NCBI GenBank assembly: GCA_035525825.1
Contig: DATLDP010000033.1
Coordinates: forward strand, 1 to 59,025
Reading direction: 5' to 3'
From: Candidatus Limnocylindria bacterium
GTDB taxonomy: Bacteria; Chloroflexota; Limnocylindria; Limnocylindrales; CSP1-4
DNA length: 59,025 nt
The stretch's first letter is position 1. Every line of letters begins with the position of its first letter. Made by a program: the position numbers and the translations under genes. Below, one piece after another: positions 1,772 through 43,282 of this stretch. The notes under the pieces were generated by a model. It saw nothing but the letters and a program-made list of their open reading frames with translations. It did no database searches and was not told the origin of the DNA.

Positions 1772-2830
1772 GTGGCCACGGACGCGGGCGCCCGCGCGCT
1801 TGCGGAGGCCGATCTCGCGGGCGTGGGCGAGGACGCGAGTGCTGCCCTCGTCACCCTCGAGGACATCCGCAGGGCAGCGGCGAATCTCGCCGGCGTGGCC
1901 ATCCGGACCCCGCTGCTCTCATTCGGGACCGCCGGTTCGGGCGGCCCGCGGGTGCTGCTCAAGGCCGAGTCGCTCCAGCCGATCGGCGCGTTCAAGATCC
2001 GCGGCGCCTACCACGCGATCGCCTCGCTGACGCCGGAGGAGCGGGCTCGCGGCGTCGTGACGCACTCCTCGGGCAACCATGCGCAGGGCGTCGCGCGGGC
2101 GGCGCGACTCCTGGGGGCAAAGGCCGTGATCGTGATGCCATCCGATGCGCCGGCGGTGAAGCGCCGCCGGGTCGAGGCGGACGGCGCGGAGGTGATCACC
2201 GTGGCTCCTGCCAGCAGCGCCCGCGAGGCAAAGGCGGAGGAGCTCATCCGCGAGCGAGGGCTGGTGTTCGTGCCGCCCTACGACGACGACCGGGTCATCG
2301 CGGGCCAGGGCACGGTCGGGCTCGAGATCGCCGAGGACGTTCCGGATCTCGCCGCCGTGCTGGTGCCGATCGGCGGGGGTGGCCTCTCCAGCGGCGTGGC
2401 GGTCGCGATCCGCGCCCTCCATCCGAACGCGAGGGTCCTGGGGGTCGAGCCGCAGGTCGCCGCCGACGCGCGGCAGTCGCTGCGCGAGGGCCGGATCGTG
2501 CGCTGGGACGCGGCGCAGACCGGGTCGACGATCGCGGACGGCGTTCGATCACAGGCGATCGGGCGGCGGCCGTTCGCCCACCTCTCGAAGCTGCTCGACG
2601 ATGTCATCACCGTGGCCGAGGCCGAGATCGCGGCGGGCGTCCGGCTGATCGCCGAGGAGGCGCGGCTGGTCGTTGAGCCGTCAGGCGCGGTGGCCCCTGC
2701 GGCCGCGCGCTTCCGGGCCGGCGAGGCGGGCATCGACGGCCTCACCGGGACGGTCGTCGCCGTCGTCAGTGGCGGCAACGTGGATCCGGAGCGCTACCTC
2801 GCGCTGCTGGAGTCGCCGCTCCCCGGCTGA
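1772..2830 (+). CDS. PLP-dependent threonine/serine dehydratase (catabolic type, no ACT domain)
   Basis: KAESLQPIGAFKIRGA (PLP lysine), HSSGNHAQG, PIGGGGL, VEPSGA, SGGNVD. Start moved to the GTG just after the DksA-like stop. Confidence 0.9.
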   Translation: MATDAGARALAEADLAGVGEDASAALVTLEDIRRAAANLAGVAIRTPLLSFGTAGSGGPRVLLKAESLQPIGAFKIRGAYHAIASLTPEERARGVVTHSSGNHAQGVARAARLLGAKAVIVMPSDAPAVKRRRVEADGAEVITVAPASSAREAKAEELIRERGLVFVPPYDDDRVIAGQGTVGLEIAEDVPDLAAVLVPIGGGGLSSGVAVAIRALHPNARVLGVEPQVAADARQSLREGRIVRWDAAQTGSTIADGVRSQAIGRRPFAHLSKLLDDVITVAEAEIAAGVRLIAEEARLVVEPSGAVAPAAARFRAGEAGIDGLTGTVVAVVSGGNVDPERYLALLESPLPG

Positions 2831-3864
2831 CCGGAGGGTCCGGCCGAACCACCCGCGGCGGCCGTGGCGGCCTCGTTCGCCCGCCGTCGCTCGAGGCGAT
2901 CCGCGCGGTCCCGCAGCGCCGCCCGCTGCGTGTCGGCCCGGCGCTCAGCCGCCACCGTGTCGCGCGTCTCGTGGCGCATCCACGCCGCGACGATCATGAG
3001 CACCCCGACGATGAAGACCACGTCCCCGCCGAGCCACATGATCCCGCCGGCAAGCTGCTGGTCCGCCAGCGGCGCGATCCCGTACGGCGCGCCCAGCGAC
3101 GCGTAGTGGCCATACAGGGGAGCGGGCGCAAACAGGATCGCTACGCCCAGGAACGAGTTGAGCGGGAACTGGAGCAGCAGGTACAGGACCCGCGCCGGGT
3201 AGCCCATCCGGCGTCGCGCGGGATCGGCCGCGATCGCGGGCCACCAGAACAGCAGCGCGGTCCCGAGATAGAGCGCGTGCTCCAGCTCGTGGACTTCCCC
3301 ATTCTCGAGGGCCAGGTCGAACAGGAGCGAGAAGTGGCTGACCCACATCACGACGGTGAAGGCCAGCCAGGCGACCACCGGGTGCCCGATCGCGCCGACG
3401 GCCGTTGAGTGAAGCACCGGCAGCAGGACCCGCCGACGGGCGTCCGGCGTCGCCACTCGGAGGAGCTGCGTCACCGGCGCGGCGAGGACCAGCAGCGGCG
3501 CCGCGATGAACAGCAGGAGGAGGTGCTGGACCATGTGGATCGAGAACAGCGTGGTGTCGTAGCGCCCGATCCCAGAGAGCAGCGCCACGGCGATCGCAGC
3601 GAGCCCGCCGAACCACGCCGCGGACCGACCGAGCGGCACCGGCGTGTCCGGGTGCGCAATGGCGATCCGCCGGACCAGCCAGATCCAGCCCGGCGCCGCC
3701 GCGAACAGCCCGATCGCGACCAGGGGCTCCAGATGCCAGCCGAAGGCGAGATTCGCAAAGGACGGTGGGTCCGGCGGAACGGAGCCATGCGCCACGGCCG
3801 TTCCCGGGACCGCCGCGGCGATGAGCATCGCGGTCGGGACGAGGAAGGTGAGGCGCCGGGTCAC
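2794..3864 (-). CDS. ctaG: Cytochrome c oxidase assembly protein, caa3-type CtaG family
   Basis: FSIHMVQHLLLLFIAAPLL, VHELEH and DQQLAGGIMW motifs; divergent from the cox operon. GTG start at 3864 inferred. Confidence 0.85.
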   Translation of the reverse strand: MTRRLTFLVPTAMLIAAAVPGTAVAHGSVPPDPPSFANLAFGWHLEPLVAIGLFAAAPGWIWLVRRIAIAHPDTPVPLGRSAAWFGGLAAIAVALLSGIGRYDTTLFSIHMVQHLLLLFIAAPLLVLAAPVTQLLRVATPDARRRVLLPVLHSTAVGAIGHPVVAWLAFTVVMWVSHFSLLFDLALENGEVHELEHALYLGTALLFWWPAIAADPARRRMGYPARVLYLLLQFPLNSFLGVAILFAPAPLYGHYASLGAPYGIAPLADQQLAGGIMWLGGDVVFIVGVLMIVAAWMRHETRDTVAAERRADTQRAALRDRADRLERRRANEAATAAAGGSAGPSGQPGSGDSSSAR

Positions 3865-4021
3865 GCCGTCATGGTGGCACGGCGTGCGCATGCGCCCCAC
3901 GATCGTGCTCGCGCTATGATGGCCCTCGGTCGGCCGAGGTTTGGTCGGCCGTTCCCGTGCCCGCCCGGTGCGCCATCACCCCGCTGCCGGGCACCGGTCC
4001 CGCCGACGCACTCGAGGAGCC

Positions 4022-5128
4022 ATGTCGACCAGTCCGAGGAAGCCCCCCGCCCCCGGAGCGATCGTCGCCGGTGGTGCCGTGCTCCTCCTGATCGCCATCG
4101 TCGGGATCGTGCTCCTGAGCCCTGCCGGCTCGGCGCTGTATCCGCCGCCGCCCGCCACTGCCCAGGCGCGGGAGATCAGCCAGCTCTACGACATCATCTT
4201 CGCCATCGCCGTGGTGGTCTTCCTCGTCGTCGAGGGCCTGATCGTCTGGAGCATCTTCCGGTACCGCCGGCGCCCGGGCGACACGGACCTGCCGCCCCAG
4301 ACCCACGGCAACAACCTGGTCGAGGCGCTCTGGACGCTCATCCCGACCGTGCTCGTGATCTTCATGTTCGCGATCTCGTGGCAGACCCTCGATCACGTTG
4401 ACGCGGTCAGCGCGGACCCGGACGTCCACATCAACGCCCTGGCGGGCCAGTTCCAGTGGCAGTTCCAGTACCTCGACAAGGACGGCAACGTCCTCGCGAC
4501 CCAGCGCCGAGCGGTCGGCGACGGCGGCGGCATGGCCGTGCCGGTCGCCAAGTCGGTCTACGTGACGCTCGAGAGCCGGGACGTCATCCACGCCTGGTAC
4601 GTCCCGCGGTTCCTCTTCAAGCGCGACGTCGTCCCGGGCCAGCAGAACCACTTCGAGTTCAAGGTGGACGAGGCCGAGGCCGGCCAGACGTTCCACGGCC
4701 AGTGCGCGGAGCTCTGCGGTACCGGCCATCGGGCGATGCTCTTCGACGTCGTGGCCATGGCCCCGGCGGACTACGACGCCTGGCTGGCGAAGCTGGTCGA
4801 GGCGGCCAATGCGACGCCGCCTCCGGCGCCGTCCGGCGCAGCCGTGATCGACCTGGCGGCGCAGGCCATCGCCTACGACAAGAAGACGCTCGATGCCCCG
4901 GCGGACGCACCGTTCGTCATCGCCTTCAAGAACGGCGACCCCGAGACCATCACCCACGACGTCGACATCAAGGGTGCCGACGGCGCCGTGATCGCCAACC
5001 AGGAGCCCATCGCGGGCGGCACCACCGGCCAATACCAGTACCAGCCGCTCGCGGCCGGCACGTACCAGTTCTTCTGCTCGATCCATCCCGGCGTGGCCGC
5101 GATGGAAGGCACCCTGACGGTGAAGTGA
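4022..5128 (+). CDS. ctaC: Cytochrome c oxidase subunit II with C-terminal type-1 cupredoxin domain
   Basis: Two TM helices; CuA ligands DVIHAW...CAELCGTGHRAM; P/A linker; then H(DV)...CSIHPGVAAM. SD gaggag precedes ATG 4022. Confidence 0.93.
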   Translation: MSTSPRKPPAPGAIVAGGAVLLLIAIVGIVLLSPAGSALYPPPPATAQAREISQLYDIIFAIAVVVFLVVEGLIVWSIFRYRRRPGDTDLPPQTHGNNLVEALWTLIPTVLVIFMFAISWQTLDHVDAVSADPDVHINALAGQFQWQFQYLDKDGNVLATQRRAVGDGGGMAVPVAKSVYVTLESRDVIHAWYVPRFLFKRDVVPGQQNHFEFKVDEAEAGQTFHGQCAELCGTGHRAMLFDVVAMAPADYDAWLAKLVEAANATPPPAPSGAAVIDLAAQAIAYDKKTLDAPADAPFVIAFKNGDPETITHDVDIKGADGAVIANQEPIAGGTTGQYQYQPLAAGTYQFFCSIHPGVAAMEGTLTVK

Positions 5129-5138
5129 GGAGGCAGCG

Positions 5139-6854
5139 ATGGCCACGCACGCCCTGAGCCCGGCTGCCGTCCCCGCCTACCGCGGCGGCATCTACGAGTG
5201 GCTGACCACGACCGATCACAAGAAGATCGGGATCATGTACGTGATCAACTCGTTCCTGTTCTTCCTGGTCGGCGGCATGTTCGCGCTGCTCGTCCGGACG
5301 GAGCTGGCGCAGCCCGGGATCCAGTTCTTCACCAACGAGCACGTCTACAACGAGTCGTTCTCGATCCATGCGACCGTGATGATCTTCCTGTTCATCATCC
5401 CGATGCTCGCGGGCCTCGGGAACTACGCGGTCCCGCTGATGATCGGCGCGCCGGACATGGCGTTCCCGCGGATCAATGCCCTGTCGTTCTGGATGTTGCC
5501 GCTCGGCGGGATCCTGCTGCTGATGGGCTTCCTGGTCCCAGGCGGCGCGGCCGCGGCCGGCTGGACGAGCTATCCCCCACTGTCCGAGCGAGGCGCGCTG
5601 TCGTCGCCAGGTGCGGGCCAGGACCTCTGGATCGTGGCACTGATCCTGATCGGCACGAGCTCGATTCTCGGCGGCATCAACTTCCTCGTGACGATCTTCA
5701 AGATGCGCGCGCCCGGGATGACCCTGTTCCGGATGCCGATCATGGTCTGGACCATTCTCGTGACCAGCGTGCTCGTCGTCATGGCGACGCCGGTCATCAC
5801 GAGCGCCCTGGTTATGCTCTTCATCGACCGGAACTACGGCGGCTCGTTCTTCAACCCGGAGACCGGCGGCACGGCCGTGCTCTACCAGAACGTGTTCTGG
5901 TTCTACTCGCATCCCGCCGTGTACGTCATGGTCCTGCCCGCGATGGGCGTGATCAGCGAGGTCCTGCCGGTCTTCAGCCGGAAGCCGCTGTTCGGCTACA
6001 AGGCGTTCATCTTCGCGACCGCCGGCATCGGCGCCCTCGGGTTCTCTGTGTGGGCCCACCACATGTTCACGACGGGCGCGGTGTTCCTGCCGTTCTTCGC
6101 GCTGATGACGTTCTTCATCGCCGTCCCGACCGGCGTGAAGATGTTCAACTGGGTCTTCACGATGTTCCGGGGCCAGCTGACATTCTCGACCCCGCTCATC
6201 TTCGCGATCGGCTTCCTGACGATGTTCCTGATCGGCGGCATCAACGGCGCCTTCAGCGCAGCCGTCCCGGTCGACTTCGCCCTCCATGACACCTACTGGG
6301 TCGTCGCCCACCTCCACTACGTCCTCTTCGGCGGCTCCGTGTTCGGCGTCTTCGCCGGGCTCTACTACTGGTTCCCGAAGATGACCGGCCGGATGCTCGA
6401 TGAAGGGCTCGGCAAGGTCCACTTCGCCCTGATGTTCATCGGCTTCAACCTGACGTTCTTCCCGATGCACATGCTCGGCATCAAGGGCATGCCCCGGCGG
6501 ATCGCGGACTACGCCTCCACCGCGGGCTGGAACGACTGGAACCTCCTGGCAACCGTCGGCGGCTTCCTGATCGGCATCTCGATGCTGCCGTTCATCTGGA
6601 ACGTCTTCGTCTCGCTGCGGAACGGCAAGGTCGCCGGCGACGATCCATGGGAGGGCAACACCCTCGAGTGGGCGACCTCCTCGCCGCCGCCGCCGTACAA
6701 CTTCGATCGCCTGCCGGAGATCCGGTCGGAGCGGCCGCTGTTCGATGCCCGCCACGGGCTCGTCGCCCATGACACCAACGCTCCGCGCGAGGTGGAGGAC
6801 GGCCAGAAGGCCATCGGGGCAGGCCCGGGCGAAGGTCGCGAGGGCCAGGCGTGA
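5139..6854 (+). CDS. ctaD: Heme-copper oxidase subunit I, A2 type
   Basis: TTTDHKKIG, HATVMIF, YSHPAVY, WAHHMF and VVAHLHY ligand motifs; PDMAFPRIN D-channel segment; TGVK K-channel lysine. Confidence 0.97.
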   Translation: MATHALSPAAVPAYRGGIYEWLTTTDHKKIGIMYVINSFLFFLVGGMFALLVRTELAQPGIQFFTNEHVYNESFSIHATVMIFLFIIPMLAGLGNYAVPLMIGAPDMAFPRINALSFWMLPLGGILLLMGFLVPGGAAAAGWTSYPPLSERGALSSPGAGQDLWIVALILIGTSSILGGINFLVTIFKMRAPGMTLFRMPIMVWTILVTSVLVVMATPVITSALVMLFIDRNYGGSFFNPETGGTAVLYQNVFWFYSHPAVYVMVLPAMGVISEVLPVFSRKPLFGYKAFIFATAGIGALGFSVWAHHMFTTGAVFLPFFALMTFFIAVPTGVKMFNWVFTMFRGQLTFSTPLIFAIGFLTMFLIGGINGAFSAAVPVDFALHDTYWVVAHLHYVLFGGSVFGVFAGLYYWFPKMTGRMLDEGLGKVHFALMFIGFNLTFFPMHMLGIKGMPRRIADYASTAGWNDWNLLATVGGFLIGISMLPFIWNVFVSLRNGKVAGDDPWEGNTLEWATSSPPPPYNFDRLPEIRSERPLFDARHGLVAHDTNAPREVEDGQKAIGAGPGEGREGQA

Positions 6855-7499: not shown

Positions 7500-7685
7500 A
7501 TGCCCGGTCGACATCTCGCCGCCATCATCATCGCGATCAGCTGCGTGGTCCTCGGCGTCCTCTACGGCGCCCTCGCGCCCGTCTTCGGCTACCGCATCGA
7601 GTGGGCCGGCGTCACGATGCTGATCGCGCTCGGTGCCGCCCTCGGCCTCATGGTGTTCGTCCTCGACACCGGGCACCGCGAGTAG
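7500..7685 (+). CDS. Small two-TM membrane protein resembling the N-terminal half of actinobacterial oxidase subunit IV (CtaF)
   Basis: 61 aa with two hydrophobic helices; IEWAGVTMLIALG recalls the CtaF EWAGT motif; in-operon position. Confidence 0.6.
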   Translation: MPGRHLAAIIIAISCVVLGVLYGALAPVFGYRIEWAGVTMLIALGAALGLMVFVLDTGHRE

Positions 7686-7698
7686 CGGGCTCCTGCCG

Positions 7699-8787
7699 AT
7701 GGAGCCGACCGCCAGTTCCAGGACCCTCCTCGACACGCTGCTCGAGGCGGCCGCGGTCGTCATCACCCCGAACTGGAACGAGCTGCTGCTCCTGATCCCG
7801 ATCGGGCTGCTCCTCCTCTTCCTCGCCTGGTTCATGCTGACGCTTCGCAGGTTCGCGACCGTCGGCCCCCGACGCCGGGAGCCGGCGCGGATCCAGCCGC
7901 TGACGCCCGCCAACGTCCACATGCCGGGCGGCTCGCTCGCCCCGATCCTGGTCGCGGTGGGCGCGGCATCGCTGTTCGCCGGCCTGATCATCGGTGGCGT
8001 CGCGCTGCTGCTGGGTGTCATCGCGCTCGTGATCACGATGCTCGCCTGGTTCCGCGAGGCGATGCAGGACTACGACCACCTGGAGCCCGCGAACCGGCTG
8101 CCGGCCGTGGTCCACGAGGGCCCGCCGCCCGGCGTCCACATGCCCGGGCCATCGATCCGCCCGCTCCTGGGGGCGCTCGGCTCCGCGGCGCTGCTGGGCG
8201 GCCTCGTGATCGGTGGCTGGGTGCTGATCCTCGCGGTCATCTTCCTCGTCTACACCCTCATCGGCTGGCTGGTCGACGCGACCGCCGAGTACCGCAAGGT
8301 CGAGGAGGCGGACAAGACCGGCCATCTCGAGAACATCCCGGACCGGCGGCTGCCGATGCGCACGCTCCAGGTCTTCGCCGTCCTGTTCGCCCTGCTGACG
8401 ATGGCCCAGCTCGGGATCTTCCCGCCGACCGCGCCGGCCACGGCCGGTGGCCCCGGCGGCTCCCCTGCCCCATCCGGCGCCGGCGGCCCCGTGGCGCCTC
8501 CGGGCTCGCTCCAGCTGGTCGCGTCGGGCATCTCCTACGACCAGAAGTCCCTCACGGCGCCCGCGGACCAGCCGATCACGTTCTTCCTGGTGAACAAGGA
8601 TCCGGCCTCCACTCCGCACGACGTGGAGCTCCACAACGCGGACGGCACGCCGATCAAGCCGGTCCCCGAGACGCCCGGCGGAGAGTCGATGGCCTACCAG
8701 TACGACCCGCTGCCGGCCGGCGACTACACCTACATCTGCTCCATCCACCCAATCCCCGCGATGACGGGGACGCTCACGGTCCAGTAG
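7699..8787 (+). CDS. Multi-TM putative oxidase accessory subunit with duplicated HMPxxS hairpin modules and C-terminal type-1 cupredoxin
   Basis: VHMPGGSLAP (7918) and VHMPGPSIRP (8137) are each followed by two TM helices. C-terminal PHDV...ICSIHPIPAM. Confidence 0.8.
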   Translation: MEPTASSRTLLDTLLEAAAVVITPNWNELLLLIPIGLLLLFLAWFMLTLRRFATVGPRRREPARIQPLTPANVHMPGGSLAPILVAVGAASLFAGLIIGGVALLLGVIALVITMLAWFREAMQDYDHLEPANRLPAVVHEGPPPGVHMPGPSIRPLLGALGSAALLGGLVIGGWVLILAVIFLVYTLIGWLVDATAEYRKVEEADKTGHLENIPDRRLPMRTLQVFAVLFALLTMAQLGIFPPTAPATAGGPGGSPAPSGAGGPVAPPGSLQLVASGISYDQKSLTAPADQPITFFLVNKDPASTPHDVELHNADGTPIKPVPETPGGESMAYQYDPLPAGDYTYICSIHPIPAMTGTLTVQ

Positions 8788-8833: not shown

Positions 8834-9430
8834 GTGATCGGGCTCGTGATTGCGGCGATCGCGACGTTCAGCCTCGTCCAGGTCCGGGCCGCGCTGGACC
8901 GGGCGGAGGCCACCCCAGGCCCGTTCATCGAGCGGGGCAAGGCGGCGCCGCCCATCGTCGGCCGAACGCTCGACGGGGAAACCTTCGACCTGGCGGCCCT
9001 GCGTGGGACCCCGGTGATCGTCAACTTCTGGGGCCCGAGCTGCATCCCCTGCCGCGACGAGTTCCCCCTCTTCAAGACGAAGCTCACCGAACTGGGAGCG
9101 GCGAATCTCGCCATCGTCGGCGTGCTCATGGACGACCCCGTCGCGCCGGCGCGGGACTTTGTCACCGAATACGGCGCGAGCTGGCCCACGGTCGAGGATG
9201 GATCCGGCGCGATCCGGGCGGTGTATCGCGTCGCCGCGCGACCGCAGTCCTACTTCATCGATCGCGAGGGCGTCCTCCGCGCGATCCAGGTCGGCCAGCT
9301 CACCGATGCCGAGTTCGCGCGGCAGTACGCGCTCATCTCGGGTGAGGCGGCCCCGGTCGTTACGGCGACCCCCGGTGGGTTCGGCAGCCAGAAGCCGTTC
9401 GGCAGTCGCGAGGTCCCGCCACCCCCATGA
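8834..9430 (+). CDS. Membrane-anchored TlpA/ResA-like thiol-disulfide oxidoreductase
   Basis: N-terminal TM; VIVNFWGPSCIPCRDEFP (CxxC); PQSYFIDREG cis-Pro motif. Start uncertain (RRRR n-region lies upstream). Confidence 0.85.
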   Translation: MIGLVIAAIATFSLVQVRAALDRAEATPGPFIERGKAAPPIVGRTLDGETFDLAALRGTPVIVNFWGPSCIPCRDEFPLFKTKLTELGAANLAIVGVLMDDPVAPARDFVTEYGASWPTVEDGSGAIRAVYRVAARPQSYFIDREGVLRAIQVGQLTDAEFARQYALISGEAAPVVTATPGGFGSQKPFGSREVPPPP

Positions 9431-36024: not shown

Positions 36025-36453
36025 GTGAACGACCAGCGCATCGTCCAGGGCGGACGGTCGAAGGCCTACCGGCCGATCCCGGAGGCCGAGCGGCGCGCGG
36101 CAATCGAGGATGGCCTCGCGGCGTACCACCGAGGCGACTTCTTCCTGGCCCACGAGCTGCTCGAGCCGGCGTGGATGGGGACCGCGGACCTGCCCGAGCG
36201 GGAGCTGCTGCAGGGCCTGATCAAGCTCGCGGCTGCGTTCGTCCATGACGCCCGCTCGAACCCGCTCGGCATCCGAAAGAATCTCGCGGGAGCCCGGGAC
36301 CGGCTGGCGGAAGGGCTCTATGCGGGCTCGCGCGTCGGGATCGATGTCGTGGCGCTGATCGCCGCCGTCGATGCACGCCTGGGTGGTGCGATCGAGGTTG
36401 GCGACCCGCCGATCGAGATCCCGCCACAGGATCCGACCGCGGGCGGAGGCTAG
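36025..36453 (+). CDS. DUF309 family protein
   Basis: FFLAHELLEPAW and LQGLIKLAAAFVH. Confidence 0.85.
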   Translation: MNDQRIVQGGRSKAYRPIPEAERRAAIEDGLAAYHRGDFFLAHELLEPAWMGTADLPERELLQGLIKLAAAFVHDARSNPLGIRKNLAGARDRLAEGLYAGSRVGIDVVALIAAVDARLGGAIEVGDPPIEIPPQDPTAGGG

Positions 36454-37979
36454 GCCTCCTTCGGGGCCCGAGCTTCGCGTTCGGCCCTGCGGTTCCGCCA
36501 CCAGCCGGCCATCTTCTCGCGGTTGTTGAAGACCCAGCCGACCGCAACCAGGATCACGAAGTTGCCCGTGCCCACGCCCGCCGCGGCGAGGTAGCCGAGC
36601 TGCTGCCCGATCTCTCCGCCGATCTGGAGGCCCGGAACCACCAGGCCCACCAGCCCGAGCTGGAAGAACGGCGCCTGCGGGGCGAGGTTCGCGCGGTAGC
36701 CGCCGGTGGCGGGGGCGCCGTCCGCCTCGCCGCCGAGGACGTAAACGTTGACGCCGCTCACGACCGTGGCGCTGTCCACCACGCCCGCCGGCAGGTCGGT
36801 CTGATCCAGGTGACGCCAGCCATCGGCCAGGTCCCCGTTGGCATTCGGGAGGGCCCAGTACACCTCGCGCTTCGAGGCGATCCCGTCCGCGCCGCCCGCG
36901 ATGTAGAGCGCACCGTTGGCCACCCAGCCAGCGGCGCCACCGCGCGCACCGGGGAGGTTCGCGGCGTCATTAACGGCCCACTGGACGACCCCTTCGATGC
37001 CGCCGCTCGCCGCGGGGCTCGGGGCCGCTGCCGAAGCGCCCGGCGCCGCGCTGCCGGCAGCCGCCGCCGCGACGCCGTAGCTGGCGCGCTGGACGGTGGC
37101 GGTCGGTCCGTTGGCGTCGTTGCCGCCGAAGACCCACAGGTAGGTGCCCTCGAGGGCCATCGTCGCGTCGGCCACGGCGTGGAGCAATGGCGGCTGCTCC
37201 TTGAACTCGCCGAGGTTGCCGGAGGTGTCGATCGTGGACTTCCAGACCTTGGTGCTCGGCGCGCCGTTGGCGTCTCGCCCGCCCGCGATCACGATGCCGT
37301 CGGTCACGGCAACCGCGGAGGCGCCGGCCCGGGGCTCGGGAAGCTTGAGATCCGTCGCGTCCTCGCCGGTGCCGATCTTGGCCGGCTCCCAGGCCTTGAG
37401 CGCGCTGGTGTCGGGGTCCAGCCCGATCTTCCAGACTGTGTCCGTGGCGCCGCCGGGACCGGCCCCGCCGACCAGGTAGGCCGTTCCGGAGAGGATCGCG
37501 AGCGCGGCGTCGGCGCGGGCCTCCGGCAGGGCCGGACCCTCCGCCCAGGCGCCGAAGACGCCGTTCGCGACCTGGCTGACGTAGGTCGTCGCGACCGGCG
37601 CGTTGCCGTCGCTGCCGCCGATGTACAGGAGGTTCGTGCCGAGCTGGGCAGCCGCACCGTCGCTTCGCGCCGCGGGGAGCGCCACGTCGGCGGCCGTGCC
37701 CTGCCACGGGACCAGCGCGCCGGCGGGAACGGGGCACGGCATGTTCGTGCCGTTCTCCGGCGGGCAGAGGTTGACCGGCGACCAGCCGAGGATGCCGAGG
37801 TCGATCGTCCGTGAGACGACGAAGTAGTAGGCGCGATCCGGCACGTAGCCGAGGGCCATGATGATGACGAGGAGCCAGAACCCGGCCTTCGTCGTCGCCC
37901 AGCCCCAGCCCTCGGGATCGAACAGCCCGAACACGGGACGGCTCCGAACCGGTCGACCTGCGGGCAGCGCCTTGGCCAT
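36450..37979 (-). CDS. Membrane protein with six Kelch-like repeats between N- and C-terminal TM segments
   Basis: Repeats LYIGG, YLVGG, VIAGG, WVFGG, YIAGG and YVLGG, most preceded by LP.AR/LP.G; 2 nt downstream of the cytochrome c gene. Confidence 0.82.
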   Translation of the reverse strand: MAKALPAGRPVRSRPVFGLFDPEGWGWATTKAGFWLLVIIMALGYVPDRAYYFVVSRTIDLGILGWSPVNLCPPENGTNMPCPVPAGALVPWQGTAADVALPAARSDGAAAQLGTNLLYIGGSDGNAPVATTYVSQVANGVFGAWAEGPALPEARADAALAILSGTAYLVGGAGPGGATDTVWKIGLDPDTSALKAWEPAKIGTGEDATDLKLPEPRAGASAVAVTDGIVIAGGRDANGAPSTKVWKSTIDTSGNLGEFKEQPPLLHAVADATMALEGTYLWVFGGNDANGPTATVQRASYGVAAAAAGSAAPGASAAAPSPAASGGIEGVVQWAVNDAANLPGARGGAAGWVANGALYIAGGADGIASKREVYWALPNANGDLADGWRHLDQTDLPAGVVDSATVVSGVNVYVLGGEADGAPATGGYRANLAPQAPFFQLGLVGLVVPGLQIGGEIGQQLGYLAAAGVGTGNFVILVAVGWVFNNREKMAGWWRNRRAEREARAPKEA

Positions 37980-37981
37980 CG

Positions 37982-39046
37982 CTATTCGACCGTCAGGGTG
38001 CCGGTCATCGCCGGGATCGGGTGGACCCGGCAGATGAAGGTGTAGGTACCGGCCGCGAGCGGAGCGTAGGGATAGACGATCTGCTGGCCGCCGTCGATCG
38101 GCGCGGGATCCGAGATCGAGGTGCCGTCCGCGGCCTTGATCTGGACGTTGTGGGGCAGACCGGGCCCGTCCTGATTGTCGAGCGCGATGCCGAACGGCTT
38201 GTCAGCCGGGACGGTGAGCTCCTTCTTGTCGAACGCGACGCCGACCGCGACAAGGTCGACGACGGTGTCCTCCGGGCCGAGCGTCGCCACCGGTGCCGGT
38301 GTGCCGCCACCGCTCCCGGACCAGCACTCGGGCACGTCGGTGGCGTCGGCGGCGGGCTTGAACTCGTCATCGCGCCAACCCTTGAACGTCTCGACCTTGC
38401 CGTCTTCGCCGATGACCGGTTCGTTGAGCTCCGGGTCGCGCCGGGTGAACTCCTGGGTGCTCGGAGCACGGATGAAGGCGATCAGGTCCTCGATCTGGAT
38501 GTAGTTGAGCGGGCCGCCGTTCGTGTCGGCCCAGACCGGCATGAGGCTCTTGGGATTGCCGCAGACGTACCGCCCGCCGACCGTCAGGACGTTGTGGATG
38601 TACTGCTCGGACAGGTGCGAGAAGAGCTTCGCCTGGTCGTTGAGGACCGGGCCGATCCCGCCCTCGCCCTTGGCGCCGTGGCACCGCGCGCAGTTCGCCT
38701 CGTAGAGGTTGTAGCCGCGCTCGATGGACGAGACCTGCTGGGCGTTCTCCTGCGCCTCGAGCCGCGGCGTCGTCTCGATGATCGGGACCCCGAGCTCGTA
38801 GAAGTAGTAGATGATCACGAACAGGGCCACGATCGCGACGCCGAGGAACGCCACCCACCGGGCGTCACCCGTCTGGCGGACGATCTTGGCGGCGCGCTCC
38901 GACGTCAGCCCCGCGATCGCCCGGGTCTGGCGGGGCGCGGTGAAGCGCTCGGCGGACCGGGTGGGGGCGGTTTCGCTGGGCTCGCGGCGGGCGGGCAGGC
39001 TCCGCTCCGGCTGGCCCTCCCGCCGGTCCCTGGGCGAGTCGGTCAT
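37982..39046 (-). CDS. Membrane-anchored monoheme cytochrome c fused to a type-1 cupredoxin
   Basis: One TM; CARCH heme motif; SLMP likely axial Met; C-terminal PHNV...ICRVHPIPAM. Confidence 0.88.
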   Translation of the reverse strand: MTDSPRDRREGQPERSLPARREPSETAPTRSAERFTAPRQTRAIAGLTSERAAKIVRQTGDARWVAFLGVAIVALFVIIYYFYELGVPIIETTPRLEAQENAQQVSSIERGYNLYEANCARCHGAKGEGGIGPVLNDQAKLFSHLSEQYIHNVLTVGGRYVCGNPKSLMPVWADTNGGPLNYIQIEDLIAFIRAPSTQEFTRRDPELNEPVIGEDGKVETFKGWRDDEFKPAADATDVPECWSGSGGGTPAPVATLGPEDTVVDLVAVGVAFDKKELTVPADKPFGIALDNQDGPGLPHNVQIKAADGTSISDPAPIDGGQQIVYPYAPLAAGTYTFICRVHPIPAMTGTLTVE

Positions 39047-40470: not shown

Positions 40471-41199
40471 TCATAGCGGACCGGAGATTCCGCCGTCTTT
40501 CCTGATGCGCCAGAAGTGGACGGCCAGGAAGATGGCGGCGACGAGCGGCAGGACCATGATGTGGAGCACGTAGAACCGGAGCAGCGTGTTCTGCCCGACC
40601 TCCAGTCCACCGAAGATCAGCGACTGGATGGGGGTGTTGATCACCGGCGTGTAGCTGGCCATGTTCAGGCCGATCGTGATGGCCCAGTAGCTGATCTGGT
40701 CCCACGGCAGCAGGTAGCCGGTGAAGCTCAGGGCGATCGTCATCAGCAGCAGGATCACGCCGACGACCCAGTTGAACTCCCGCGGCGGCTTGTAGGCCCC
40801 GTGGTAGAAGACCCGCATCATGTGCAGGAAGACGAAGAAGACCATCAGGTGGGCGCCCCACCGGTGGACGTTCCGGGTCAGCAGGCCGAACGCGACGCGT
40901 GACTGGATGTTCAGGATGTCCGTGTACGCGCTCCCGGTCGACGGGATGTAGAAGAACATGAGGTAGACGCCCGTCACGGTCAGGACGAGGAACAGGAAGA
41001 ACGACAGCCCGCCGAGGCAGAACGTGTACGCGAACTTGACCGCGTGCTGCCGGACCCGGACCGGGTGGAGGTGCAGGAAGACGTTGTTCATCACGGCGTA
41101 CGCGCGCGACCGCTCGTCCGTCGGGTAGGGGTTGCGGAAGAGCGACCGCCAAGCGGGGCTCCGGCGGATGGCCTGGTCCACCCGCTCGAGGAAGCTCAA
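40471..41199 (-). CDS. qcrB: Cytochrome b6-type subunit (4 TM) with heme ci cysteine
   Basis: FCLGG, HRWGAHLM...LHM, GYLLPWDQ, LH...VHF. TTG start with SD aggagg overlaps the upstream TGA. Confidence 0.93.
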   Translation of the reverse strand: MSFLERVDQAIRRSPAWRSLFRNPYPTDERSRAYAVMNNVFLHLHPVRVRQHAVKFAYTFCLGGLSFFLFLVLTVTGVYLMFFYIPSTGSAYTDILNIQSRVAFGLLTRNVHRWGAHLMVFFVFLHMMRVFYHGAYKPPREFNWVVGVILLLMTIALSFTGYLLPWDQISYWAITIGLNMASYTPVINTPIQSLIFGGLEVGQNTLLRFYVLHIMVLPLVAAIFLAVHFWRIRKDGGISGPL

Positions 41200-43034
41200 C
41201 GACCCATTCCTCCTGCGACGCCGGGCGTGCCGGCGAGCTGAGCGTCTCGGTACGACTCCTTGTAGAGCCGGCCATCGGTCGAGATCTCTTGCAGCTCGAA
41301 CCGCTCCATCGTAATGGCGTCGAACGGGCAACGCTTGACGCACAGCGCGCAGCGGATGCAGCGCTCCTCGTCGAGGATCATCGCGGCGCCGTCCTGCCAG
41401 CCGTAGGCCTCGTCCAGCTCGGTCAGGAGGCCCTCGGACTTGAGCTGGTTGATGTCGACCATGTGGATGACGCCCTCGGGGCAGACATCCGCGCACGCGC
41501 CGCAGAGGACGCAGCGGAACGGGTCGAACCAGATGTTGAAGTTGCACATGAGGCAGCGGGTTGACTCGGCGACGGCGGAGGTCGCGTCGTAGCCCTGCTC
41601 GACCTGGGTCGTGAAGTTGACGTCCGGGTCGGTGGACGGCATTCGCTCGGTCAGGGCCGTCATCGGGATGTGCTGGCGCGGCAGGACGTCGTAGAACTCG
41701 GGCATCTCGAACGCCCAGGTGCTGGTCATCTTGACGTTCGCCGCGACGGTCACGTCCGTGCGTCCGGCCAAGTAGCGGTCGATCGCGTACGCGGCCTTCT
41801 TGCCGTGGCCCGCTGCCTCGATGAGGGTCGTGGGGCCGGTCACGAAATCGCCGCAGGCGAAGACGCCCCGGACGTTCGTGGCGTAGGTCGCGGGATCCAC
41901 CTTCACGCGGCCGCGATTGACCTCGAAGTCCGCCTCGACCGGGAGGAACGTCAGGTCCGCGGCCTGCGAGACGGCCGGGATGACCGTGTCGGCCTTGATC
42001 ACGAACTCGGACCCGGGGATCGGCACCGGCGAGCGCCGGCCCGAGGCGTCCGGCTCGCCGAGCTTGTTCCGGATGAACTTGACGCCGGTCACGTGGCCGT
42101 TCTCGCCGAGCACCTCCACCGGGCTCGCGAGGAACTCCATGCGGACGCCCTCCCGCTCCGTCTCGCCGAGCTCCTCCTCGTCGACGACCAGCTCGGACCG
42201 CGTCCGGCGGTAGACGATCGCGACGTTCTCGGCGCCGTGCCGGAGCGAGGTTCGCGAGCAGTCCATCGCGGTGTAGCCACCGCCGATGACCACCACGTCC
42301 CTGCCGACCTCGATCGGCTCGCCGAGGTTGGCCTTCTTCATGAAGTCCACGCCGTACTGGACGCCCTCGAGGTCGCCACCCGGCACGTCGAGGGCCACGG
42401 CGTTCATCGCGCCGGCCGTGATCGCAACCGCGTCATGGTCGCTCTGGAGCTCGTCGAAGGTGATGTCGACGCCGATGTTGGTGTTGTAGTGGAAGGTCAC
42501 GCCGAGGCGCTCGACCAGCTTGATGTCCATCTCGATCGCCTCGCGCGGGAGGCGGAACGCCGGCACGCCGATGAGCATCGTCCCGCCGCCGTACGGCAGG
42601 CTGTCGTAGACGTCCACCCCATAGCCCTTCATCGCCAGCTCGCGGGCGACCGAGATGCCGGACGGACCTGCGCCGACGACCGCGACCTTCTCGGCCCGGG
42701 CCTCGATGTGGGGCATGACGTCAGGGATGCCCGAAGCCTCGTGCCACTCGACGAGGAAGCGCTTCATCGCCCGGATCGCAAGGGGCCGGTCGATGTCGCC
42801 GCGGCGGCAGGCGCGCTCGCACGGGGCGGAGCAGACATAGGAGCACATCGCGGCCACGGGGTTGGGCTCGCGGGAGAGGATGTAGCCCTCCTCGAAGCGG
42901 CCTTCCGCGGCAAGGTTCAGGTAGCCCCGGCAGTTCGTCCCGACCGGGCAGGCCTCCTGGCACTCGATGTTGCACTGGAGCCAGGAAGCATCGACCGGCT
43001 GGACGAGGAATTCCTGGCGGACGTCGAGGGTCAA
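41196..43034 (-). CDS. GltD/NfnB/DsrL-like NAD(P)H-dependent flavo-iron-sulfur oxidoreductase with C-terminal 2x[4Fe-4S] ferredoxin
   Basis: CQEACP, CSYVCSAPCERAC, GAGPSG, GGGYTAMD, YRRT, GDFVTGP, RCLMC and two CxxCxxCxxxCP motifs. Start uncertain (TTG 43034 after gaggt). Confidence 0.9.
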   Translation of the reverse strand: MTLDVRQEFLVQPVDASWLQCNIECQEACPVGTNCRGYLNLAAEGRFEEGYILSREPNPVAAMCSYVCSAPCERACRRGDIDRPLAIRAMKRFLVEWHEASGIPDVMPHIEARAEKVAVVGAGPSGISVARELAMKGYGVDVYDSLPYGGGTMLIGVPAFRLPREAIEMDIKLVERLGVTFHYNTNIGVDITFDELQSDHDAVAITAGAMNAVALDVPGGDLEGVQYGVDFMKKANLGEPIEVGRDVVVIGGGYTAMDCSRTSLRHGAENVAIVYRRTRSELVVDEEELGETEREGVRMEFLASPVEVLGENGHVTGVKFIRNKLGEPDASGRRSPVPIPGSEFVIKADTVIPAVSQAADLTFLPVEADFEVNRGRVKVDPATYATNVRGVFACGDFVTGPTTLIEAAGHGKKAAYAIDRYLAGRTDVTVAANVKMTSTWAFEMPEFYDVLPRQHIPMTALTERMPSTDPDVNFTTQVEQGYDATSAVAESTRCLMCNFNIWFDPFRCVLCGACADVCPEGVIHMVDINQLKSEGLLTELDEAYGWQDGAAMILDEERCIRCALCVKRCPFDAITMERFELQEISTDGRLYKESYRDAQLAGTPGVAGGMGR

Positions 43035-43282
43035 GGCGCGGCTGAACCTCAGTTCGTCGATGGCGGACGGTCGAACGATGGGGGCCGGCGATCCGGGAGC
43101 GGCCGGCAGGCGCAATCTACCATCCGCTCCCTTCCCACGCTCGCCGCACGCTCGGGACGTGCGTCTGCGAGCCCGGAATCGGGCCTGCGCGAAAGGTTGA
43201 CGCGGGCGTTCGCTCGCAGCTACGCTCCGGCGCAGCGACGACGCCCCCGGGTGGCGTTGGACTCCGAGGCATTGGATCCCGC

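Follow-up and report, generated by a model that had tools for sequence, protein, structure and literature searches.

The stretch of DNA considered here (the window) comprises 59,025 nucleotides of contig DATLDP010000033.1, from a Candidatus Limnocylindria bacterium of the Chloroflexota (assembly GCA_035525825.1, 2.3 Mb and 80% complete). On its reverse strand lies a gene for a membrane-anchored cytochrome c-cupredoxin fusion, in which an arginine-rich tail, a single transmembrane helix, a class-I cytochrome c domain, a flexible linker and a type-1 copper domain follow one another in one chain. The gene is the fifth of six in the order GltD-like flavoprotein / cytochrome b6 / subunit IV / Rieske protein / fusion / Kelch-repeat protein. 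An oxidase operon is found in the same window, with a divergent CtaG gene followed by CoxB, CoxA, CoxC, a CtaF-type subunit-IV-like protein and a TlpA-like thioredoxin (Table 1). A carrier that normally diffuses freely appears in this uncultured soil and freshwater bacterium to be built into complex III.

The fusion belongs to a large family. A search of 5.8 billion proteins returned 2037 homologues at E<=1e-3, and the best 120 of these 2037 matches are each ~355 residues long and contain both domains; the source names of the matches read only "c-type cytochrome" or "mono/diheme cytochrome c family protein/plastocyanin". In an alignment of 59 homologues that are 52-82% identical to the fusion, ten residues are invariant in all 59 sequences: C119, C122, H123, M169, C162, C241, H299, C339, H342 and M347. 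Given this invariance, the elements of the protein are more than chance. The whole chain has three methionines (M1, M169 and M347) and five cysteines (119, 122, 162, 241 and 339). A preliminary description, made from the sequence of the window alone, had listed a transmembrane segment, a CARCH haem domain with a likely methionine ligand in SLMP, two additional cysteines, a linker, a cupredoxin and an ATGA overlap with the Rieske gene, and each of these was recovered.

The cytochrome c core is the most conserved block of the protein, with a mean column conservation of 0.84. It matches Cytochrom_C (PF00034) over residues 108-193 with 35.8 bits against a cut-off of 21.3, and Cytochrome_CBB3 (PF13442) with 33.5 bits against a cut-off of 27. 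CARCH is the only CxxCH motif in the chain, and the presumed sixth haem ligand is Met169 (in SLMPVW), which lies 45-57 residues past H123 across the alignment and whose counterpart in dihaem and trihaem homologues is the methionine of 'MPAW'. Weak PDB profile matches of the haem region are to CcoP and to actinobacterial QcrC chains. Identification of the protein as a cytochrome c1 or a cytochrome f was ruled out, neither family model (PF02167, PF01333) being matched in the Pfam search at E<=0.01.

The other invariant cysteine pair consists of C162 (RYVCGN) and C241 (VPECW), the latter at the end of a 48-residue extension of the cytochrome domain; the interval from R193 to C241 varies from 39 to 50 residues across the family. 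In homologues from more distant families (families are designated by f-numbers, with f1 and f2 in the window's own order and f3 a sister family in the same class), Cys162 has no counterpart in the f3, f23 and f27 proteins that were read, and none is evident for C241 in the same proteins, in a region that is not aligned there. On the basis of the invariance within the family and the missing Cys162 counterpart in distant homologues, a C162-C241 disulfide is proposed, which would probably pin down the 48-residue extension and thereby hold the tether firm at its base.

The linker that follows is the least conserved block of the protein (0.56), and in the family the interval from C241 to A267 is 23-40 residues long and 79% A/G/P/S/T in composition. 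The cupredoxin beyond it (0.62) matches Cupredoxin_1 (PF13473) over residues 261-353 with 30.7 bits against a cut-off of 27, and the PF00127 model reaches 18.1 bits on it, under the cut-off of 21.2. Four invariant residues make up a complete His/Cys/His/Met set of copper ligands, with the last three in a loop that has the form C-x2-H-x2-5-M across the family. An AlphaFold2 model built on the 59-sequence alignment gives the copper domain eight strands at a predicted local distance difference test (pLDDT) score of 89-98, and residues 155-177 and 235-252 fall below 50 and are disordered. Foldseek ranks two auracyanins first for the modelled cupredoxin, 6kol and 1qhq from Roseiflexus and Chloroflexus (E about 3e-8), and then a Bacillus Cupredoxin_1 protein, amicyanin and plastocyanin, with a Foldseek probability of 1.00 to auracyanin, amicyanin and plastocyanin; auracyanin A (2aan) is also the first PDB profile match of the fusion.

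At the other end of the protein, a hydropathy scan finds one hydrophobic segment at about residues 63-88, with a mean column conservation of 0.79, and the anchor is modelled as a helix over residues 49-85 (pLDDT 84-90). The arginine-rich tail before it points, by the positive-inside rule, to an N-in orientation, and the conservation of the tail (0.66) supports the annotated start of the gene. Nine tail residues are invariant in the 59-sequence alignment (L17, P18, R34, F35, L47, R51, V56, Q58 and A62), which is unexpected for the ~60-residue tail of a simple anchor. On the cytoplasmic side the tail may contact cytochrome b6 or the GltD-like subunit.

The fusion gene is closely joined to its neighbors. 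Its ATG lies inside the end of the Rieske gene (...TGC ATA TGA), which gives the ATGA overlap, and the Kelch gene starts 2 nt past its TAG stop. The six-gene order recurs in about 58 related loci, essentially every locus that is long enough, as judged by tblastn with the six proteins, and it is kept in streamlined relatives of 1.1-1.4 Mb, of which G016 carries the whole operon. The partner encoded immediately upstream has the features of a Rieske subunit, i.e. an RRTLLRR motif of the twin-arginine translocation (Tat) type and the CPHLGC and CPCHGS boxes.

Comparison with other families provides the strongest available argument as to the role of the copper domain. In 24 loci from other Chloroflexota families the gene after the Rieske gene was classified, eight of the assignments being confirmed by Pfam, and all 24 encode a transmembrane helix and a cytochrome c domain homologous to those of the fusion; the position after the Rieske gene is conserved in at least 15 families. 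It is the distal part that varies. A cupredoxin with a C-x2-H-x2-4-M loop is found in f1, f2, f23 (Ktedonobacteraceae by source names), f27, f8, f45 and f56, a second haem c domain in f3 (four genomes), f42 and f53, two more CxxCH motifs in f9, f13, f17 and f26, and no distal module in f22 and f38. At the f3 locus L079 the GltD-like, cytochrome b6, subunit IV and Rieske genes are all kept upstream. The cupredoxin thus takes the very place that a distal haem c domain has in close relatives, which argues that it is a tethered electron carrier.

Two further copies of the same copper module occur in the oxidase operon. Against a hidden Markov model (HMM) of the fusion's cupredoxin, the fusion itself scores 133 bits, the C-terminus of CoxB 111 and that of the subunit-IV-like protein 97, whereas no further cupredoxin of the genome exceeds 38 bits. 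Identity among the three domains is 48-53% (the fusion's is 53% identical to that of CoxB and 48% to that of the subunit-IV-like protein), and each has a complete H/C/H/M set. CoxB, with the CuA motif HGQCAELCGTGHRAM, is a likely electron acceptor for the fusion, and its cupredoxin sits where caa3 oxidases carry cytochrome c. The CoxB-cupredoxin fusion is present at full length in the genus and in the sister family f3 (50% identity over residues 55-395 in f3); the CoxB proteins of the 1.1 Mb relatives (f2) and of the Ktedonobacteraceae are plain, without a cupredoxin. Because the Ktedonobacteraceae combine a haem-copper c subunit with a plain CoxB, it is suggested that a tethered cupredoxin can donate to CuA directly. 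CtaG and the TlpA/ResA-like thioredoxin could plausibly assist the maturation of the CuA, copper or haem c sites.

When 28 fused cupredoxin domains are placed in a maximum-likelihood tree (about 100 columns), they fall into two clades, each with 100/99 support. The first holds all the Limnocylindria domains, with the copies from the bc subunit, CoxB and CoxIV intermixed; for example, the bc-subunit domain of G016 is sister to the CoxIV domain of the same genome (91/84). In the second are the plastocyanin/amicyanin-like (PF00127) domains of f23, f27, f8, f45 and f56 together with the CoxB-fused domains of f17. Since the alignment is this short and support is strong for only 7 of the 25 inner branches, the deep split alone is reliable, and this split indicates that the haem-copper architecture arose at least twice or that its copper module was replaced. 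Within the Limnocylindria, judging from the domain sequences, the cupredoxin module is common to complex III and the oxidase. In G016 a CoxIV-cupredoxin fusion lies only 4 kb from the bc operon (locus L082).

The respiratory inventory of the genome is short. COX1 (PF00115) has a single match, of 538 bits, which lies in the window; the profile searches found one cytochrome b, and the one PF13442 cytochrome c is the fusion. A custom HMM found no paralogue of its cytochrome c domain in the genome, and neither a cytochrome bd oxidase nor an NrfD-type subunit of Alternative Complex III was found in the genome search. CxxCH occurs in 34 frames of at least 60 residues, nearly all of them arginine-rich off-frames or without cytochrome context (e.g. 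a likely ribosomal protein L31 and a thioredoxin-like CHWCH, judged by context alone), and the HMM detected no second cytochrome c among the 34. With one cytochrome b, one COX1, one cytochrome c and neither a bd oxidase nor Alternative Complex III, the fusion is placed on the only detected path from quinol to oxygen. A six-frame search with Pfam PF01578 found one haem lyase of the CcsA/ResC family (C23:4416-5015), which is kept even in relatives with genomes of 1.1-1.4 Mb; the regular expression WG..W.WD for the tryptophan-rich motif of CcsA, a pattern that is too strict, had no match in the genome. The organism looks copper-centred, with a single c-type cytochrome detected.

Taken with the translational coupling, the synteny and the lack of another detected c-type cytochrome, the fusion is very probably the c-type subunit of the b6-type Rieske/cytochrome b quinol oxidoreductase. 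That its copper domain serves as the electron exit towards the oxidase is held with less assurance, as probable. The preliminary description had gone further in assigning to one chain the roles of cytochrome c1/f and of the mobile carrier. Of this, the place as c-type subunit of the complex is strongly supported; the "role of c1/f" holds by analogy and not as homology, and the mobile-carrier role is a proposal, supported by comparison with the distal modules of other families and with the oxidase paralogues.

The sequences show the ligand sets, the domain architecture, the paralogy, the phyletic pattern and the membership of the operon; the topology, the direction and route of electron transfer and any supercomplex are inferred, along the following lines. 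The N-terminal helix would anchor the protein with its tail in the cytoplasm, and both redox domains, cytochrome c and cupredoxin, would lie at the outer membrane surface. Quinol would be oxidised at the Qo site formed by cytochrome b6 and subunit IV, and one electron would pass from the Rieske cluster to haem c, the constant module next to the anchor, and from there to the type-1 copper of the cupredoxin domain. Suspended from a flexible linker of roughly 15-30 residues, the cupredoxin would then serve as donor to the aa3-type oxidase, with CuA as the immediate acceptor or with the paralogous cupredoxins of CoxB and the subunit-IV-like protein in between.

Several points weigh against this scheme. 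The attachment of haem, the occupancy of the copper site, the redox potentials and the transfer within the molecule are all inferred in this protein. The genome being 80% complete, statements that there is "only one" of a component are provisional. The haem domain is modelled only moderately (pLDDT about 50-75), as expected for a model that contains no haem, and with a predicted template modelling (pTM) score of 0.36 the relative position of the domains is undefined. With a GltD-like subunit present, the scheme does not fix what the complex as a whole catalyses. The module types on the two complexes also fail to vary together cleanly: f3 combines a dihaem subunit with a CoxB-cupredoxin fusion, and f2 a haem-copper c subunit with a CoxIV-cupredoxin fusion and a plain CoxB. 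Lastly, the genome encodes at least six other single-domain cupredoxins with a lipobox or transmembrane anchor (contigs C94, C32, C39, C64, C49 and C126), possible intermediaries, so that electrons may reach the oxidase from the bc complex by an indirect route. In the C32 protein an isoleucine occupies the expected axial methionine position (GHESLGIKG), which, from the sequence, would suggest a higher-potential site.

These anchored cupredoxins, with sites of the H/C/H/M type, are one ground for an alternative in which the fusion is indeed the c subunit and its copper domain is a distribution hub that hands electrons on to these separate carriers, for shuttling to the oxidase or to other acceptors. 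The proposal that lineages with the haem-copper c subunit have a copper-bearing CoxB and that dihaem lineages lack it was not borne out cleanly, with f3, f2 and the Ktedonobacteraceae as exceptions; the lack of clean co-variation between bc-side and oxidase-side fusions suggests interchangeable partners rather than a fixed copper-copper pair, and counts in favour of a hub. The hub is nevertheless unlikely, since the stand-alone cupredoxins are far more distant from the fusion's domain than are the CoxB and CoxIV domains, and since the searches run revealed one haem-copper oxidase, no bd oxidase and no other terminal reductase to which electrons could be distributed.

The reverse direction has to be considered because of the first gene of the operon, which encodes an NAD(P)-binding iron-sulfur flavoprotein whose translation is coupled to that of cytochrome b6 through a TTGA overlap. 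No other gene of the operon is as well conserved (84-96% identity across related loci), the sister family f3 has it too, and its product resembles NAD(P) oxidoreductase subunits that have been considered in connection with the Rieske/b complexes of anammox. The cupredoxin could then be an entry point that takes electrons from an external high-potential donor and feeds them through haem c into the complex, with the complex running in reverse and the GltD-like subunit reducing NAD(P)+. An uphill flow from cupredoxin to cytochrome c to bc1 is found in iron oxidisers, and the role would resemble the uphill branch of Acidithiobacillus ferrooxidans. Such a role is judged very improbable, as this is the only cytochrome b complex, encoded beside the only oxidase, and so is needed for forward respiration; moreover the searches run showed no lithotrophic donor system, and the same haem-copper architecture occurs in Ktedonobacteraceae loci, L081 for one, in which tblastn revealed no upstream GltD-like gene.

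It is comparably improbable that the cupredoxin is a copper-handling or structural domain, e.g. for copper delivery to CuA or as a docking scaffold. Some proteins of cupredoxin fold are chaperones, the Foldseek matches include CupA (4f2e) and FtrB (8vuk), and CtaG and the TlpA-like thioredoxin flank the oxidase genes; against this, the full His/Cys/His/Met set is typical of electron-transfer type-1 sites and is invariant, the best matches (auracyanins, amicyanin and plastocyanin) are all carriers, and the domain stands where relatives have haem c carrier domains. Least probable of all is that the fusion is a mere neighbor of the bc genes, for even though operon membership alone never proves membership of a complex, the gene has four-base and two-base junctions with the adjoining genes, and keeps its place after the Rieske gene across families, and no other c-type cytochrome was detected that could accept electrons from the Rieske centre.

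Returning to the fusion as a c subunit with a copper exit, a more far-reaching picture can be advanced, tentatively, from the family comparison and the tree. The distal module of the Chloroflexota c subunit may be an interchangeable cassette, either haem c or cupredoxin, with haem-copper subunits formed two or more times from two deeply separated cupredoxin clades and with a Limnocylindrales pool of domains repeatedly exchanged with CoxB and CoxIV. The result, in a lineage abundant in soil and fresh water, would be a hard-wired path from Rieske centre to haem c, copper, copper and CuA, probably within a supercomplex of complexes III and IV, and with no diffusible carrier.

Table 1. Positions of the cytochrome c-cupredoxin gene and its parts, of the surrounding operon and of the oxidase genes in the window
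Feature	Position	Strand	Basis or remark
Membrane-anchored cytochrome c-cupredoxin fusion, whole gene	37982..39046	-	354 aa + TAG stop; ORF (open reading frame), DNA, Pfam
Residues 1-62, Arg-rich conserved N-terminal tail, probably cytoplasmic	38861..39046	-	alignment
Residues 63-88, single transmembrane anchor, RWVAFLGVAIVALFVIIYYFYELGVP	38783..38860	-	hydropathy scan
Residues 108-193, class-I cytochrome c domain	38468..38725	-	Pfam
CARCH haem-binding motif, C119/C122/H123	38678..38692	-	sequence; invariant 59/59
Cys162 (RYVCGN), extra Cys pair	38561..38563	-	invariant 59/59
Met169, SLMPVWADTNGG, presumed sixth haem ligand	38540..38542	-	invariant; ligand role presumed
Cys241 (VPECW), end of 48-residue extension	38324..38326	-	invariant
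Residues 242-257, flexible A/G/P/S/T linker, SGSGGGTPAPVATLGP	38276..38323	-	pLDDT <50
Residues 258-354, type-1 cupredoxin domain	37985..38275	-	Pfam, AlphaFold2, Foldseek
His299 (LPHNV), first Cu ligand	38150..38152	-	invariant
C339-R-V-H342-P-I-P-A-M347, Cys/His/Met ligand loop of type-1 Cu site	38006..38032	-	all three invariant
GltD-like NAD(P)-binding Fe-S flavoprotein, C-terminal 2x[4Fe-4S] domain, first operon gene	41196..43115	-	Pfam, NCBIfam
Cytochrome b6, 242 aa, TTG start 41199, FCLGG (CxGG) motif	40471..41199	-	PF00033, 162 bits
Subunit IV / PetD-like, 208 aa	39726..40352	-	PF00032; ExtQ-like match (NCBIfam)
Rieske iron-sulfur subunit, 224 aa	39043..39717	-	PF00355; NCBIfam Rieske models
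Kelch-repeat membrane protein, last operon gene	36450..37979	-	Pfam Kelch families; position conserved in related loci
CtaG assembly factor, caa3-type	2794-3900	-	flanks oxidase genes
Oxidase subunit II CoxB (CuA), C-terminal cupredoxin paralogue	3941..5128	+	PF02790, PF00116, PF13473; start codon uncertain
Oxidase subunit I, only COX1 detected	5139..6854	+	PF00115
Subunit-IV-like (CtaF-type) membrane protein, C-terminal cupredoxin	7633..8787	+	PF12270 + PF13473; start codon uncertain
TlpA/ResA-like thioredoxin	8834-9430	+	flanks oxidase genes

Other genes of the operon and of the related loci show features of their own. The TTG start of cytochrome b6 overlaps the upstream TGA and is preceded by AGGAGG 8 nt upstream; a longer b6 frame (41547..40471), extending 350 nt into the upstream gene and aligned through by tblastn, was rejected as merely open in DNA of 70% GC. 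The CxGG motif of cytochrome b6 is associated with a third, covalently bound haem, and subunit IV has APWY instead of the classical PEWY Qo motif. The N-terminal transmembrane region (GYVPDRAYY) and the C-terminal hydrophobic part of the Kelch protein weakly match (E 7e-4 and 0.012) a membrane protein of 196 residues that follows the c subunit in the sister family f3 (L079:5438-6028, reverse strand); the Kelch propeller may have been inserted into a small extra subunit that is itself conserved. In f56, the c subunit of locus L113 (G251) has 521 residues: the cytochrome c domain is followed by three LysM domains, which bind peptidoglycan, and then by a C-terminal domain containing a CDYHPAM loop, on which Pfam makes no cupredoxin call; the tether may here be pinned to the cell wall. 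At the f17 loci L106 and L107, CoxB (with a C-terminal cupredoxin) and CoxA come no more than about 1 kb after the bc genes, whose c subunit has three CxxCH motifs, so that complex III and the oxidase form one gene cluster.

To our knowledge, the characterised Rieske/cytochrome b complexes pass their electrons to haem (c1, f, or a mono- or dihaem cytochrome c) or, as is presumed for archaea, to a blue copper protein that is separate. A soluble carrier cannot be retained by cells that have no outer membrane, and haem c and type-1 copper in series in one subunit would be a third solution to this problem. The nearest known relative in function is QcrC of the actinobacterial bcc-aa3 system (7q21_C, 6hwh_M, 6adq_C, 8ovc_O), like the fusion an anchored c subunit with its own carrier domain, so that no soluble cytochrome c is needed. 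QcrC (NF050122) is also the best NCBIfam match of the fusion, and the actinobacterial-type subunit IV domain (PF12270) in the window's oxidase is a further point in common with the actinobacterial system. Membership of the QcrC family was ruled out on the single CxxCH and on a score of 47 bits against a cut-off of 200. QcrC has two CxxCH domains where the fusion has one haem and a distal type-1 copper cupredoxin, and the fusion differs further in its N-terminal anchor and in a gene order of b6 / subunit IV / Rieske / c instead of qcrCAB. It thus appears likely that the fusion is a hard-wired exit subunit like QcrC, with copper instead of the second haem. Its part would also be that of the dihaem or trihaem subunits of other Chloroflexota.

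Within the Chloroflexota, the dihaem and trihaem c subunits (f3, L079; f9, L103), for which the literature searched gave no name, resemble the fusion in a transmembrane helix and a first cytochrome c domain that are homologous (32-34% identity) and in following directly on the Rieske gene, the f3 locus having the upstream GltD-like gene as well; they differ in carrying distal haem c domains instead of the cupredoxin and in lacking the C162 cysteine. The caa3-type oxidases, in which cytochrome c is fused to subunit II, likewise attach a one-electron carrier to a respiratory complex, and in haloarchaea a halocyanin/CbaD fusion places the carrier on an oxidase subunit (PMC8305020). In both of these the carrier is on the oxidase side, whereas here it is on the donor (complex III) side and, in the same genome, on the oxidase side too. 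Archaeal complex III loci of Nitrososphaerales and Ca. Angelarchaeales have no cytochrome c, and a plastocyanin-like blue copper protein is the proposed acceptor (PMC9038741). A type-1 copper acceptor of a Rieske/cytochrome b complex is thus common to these and to the fusion; in the archaea, however, the copper protein replaces the cytochrome and is encoded by a separate gene, unlike haem c and copper in series in one chain. Sulfocyanin in the SoxM complex of Sulfolobus is a similar archaeal case.

The auracyanins A and B (2aan, 1qhq, 6kol), the best matches of the fusion's cupredoxin, are membrane-tethered type-1 carriers from the phylum of the window's bacterium, and Alternative Complex III is the enzyme that they are proposed to serve (PMC5826079); unlike the fusion's domain, they stand alone, unfused to a cytochrome and outside a Rieske/b complex. 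Three-domain copper nitrite reductases have a tethered cytochrome c or cupredoxin partner (PMC13324648) and so resemble the fusion as natural fusions in which a cognate redox partner is flexibly tethered and a single chain holds both haem c and type-1 copper, but their carrier feeds a catalytic copper centre and is unrelated to quinol oxidation. A haem-copper c subunit is unmentioned in reviews of bc-complex diversity and of Chloroflexi respiration (PMC5600118, PMC5826079), and no publication describing a bc complex with a cytochrome c-cupredoxin subunit was found in the full-text literature, subscription literature lying outside the search and absence being therefore unproven. A hard-wired carrier subunit of complex III is a known kind, and its haem-copper version is widespread in Chloroflexota genomes and, as far as found, undescribed.

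Limnocylindria and Ktedonobacteria are abundant in soil and fresh water, and the fusion, the single c-type cytochrome detected in the genome and a component of the one path from quinol to oxygen that was detected, is likely central to respiration and to copper demand in these organisms. It offers a natural, genetically linked haem-to-copper donor-acceptor pair on a tether, attractive for studies of intramolecular electron transfer. Finally, the exchange of haem c for cupredoxin between sister families provides a clean evolutionary experiment on carrier replacement, comparable to that of cytochrome c6 and plastocyanin.

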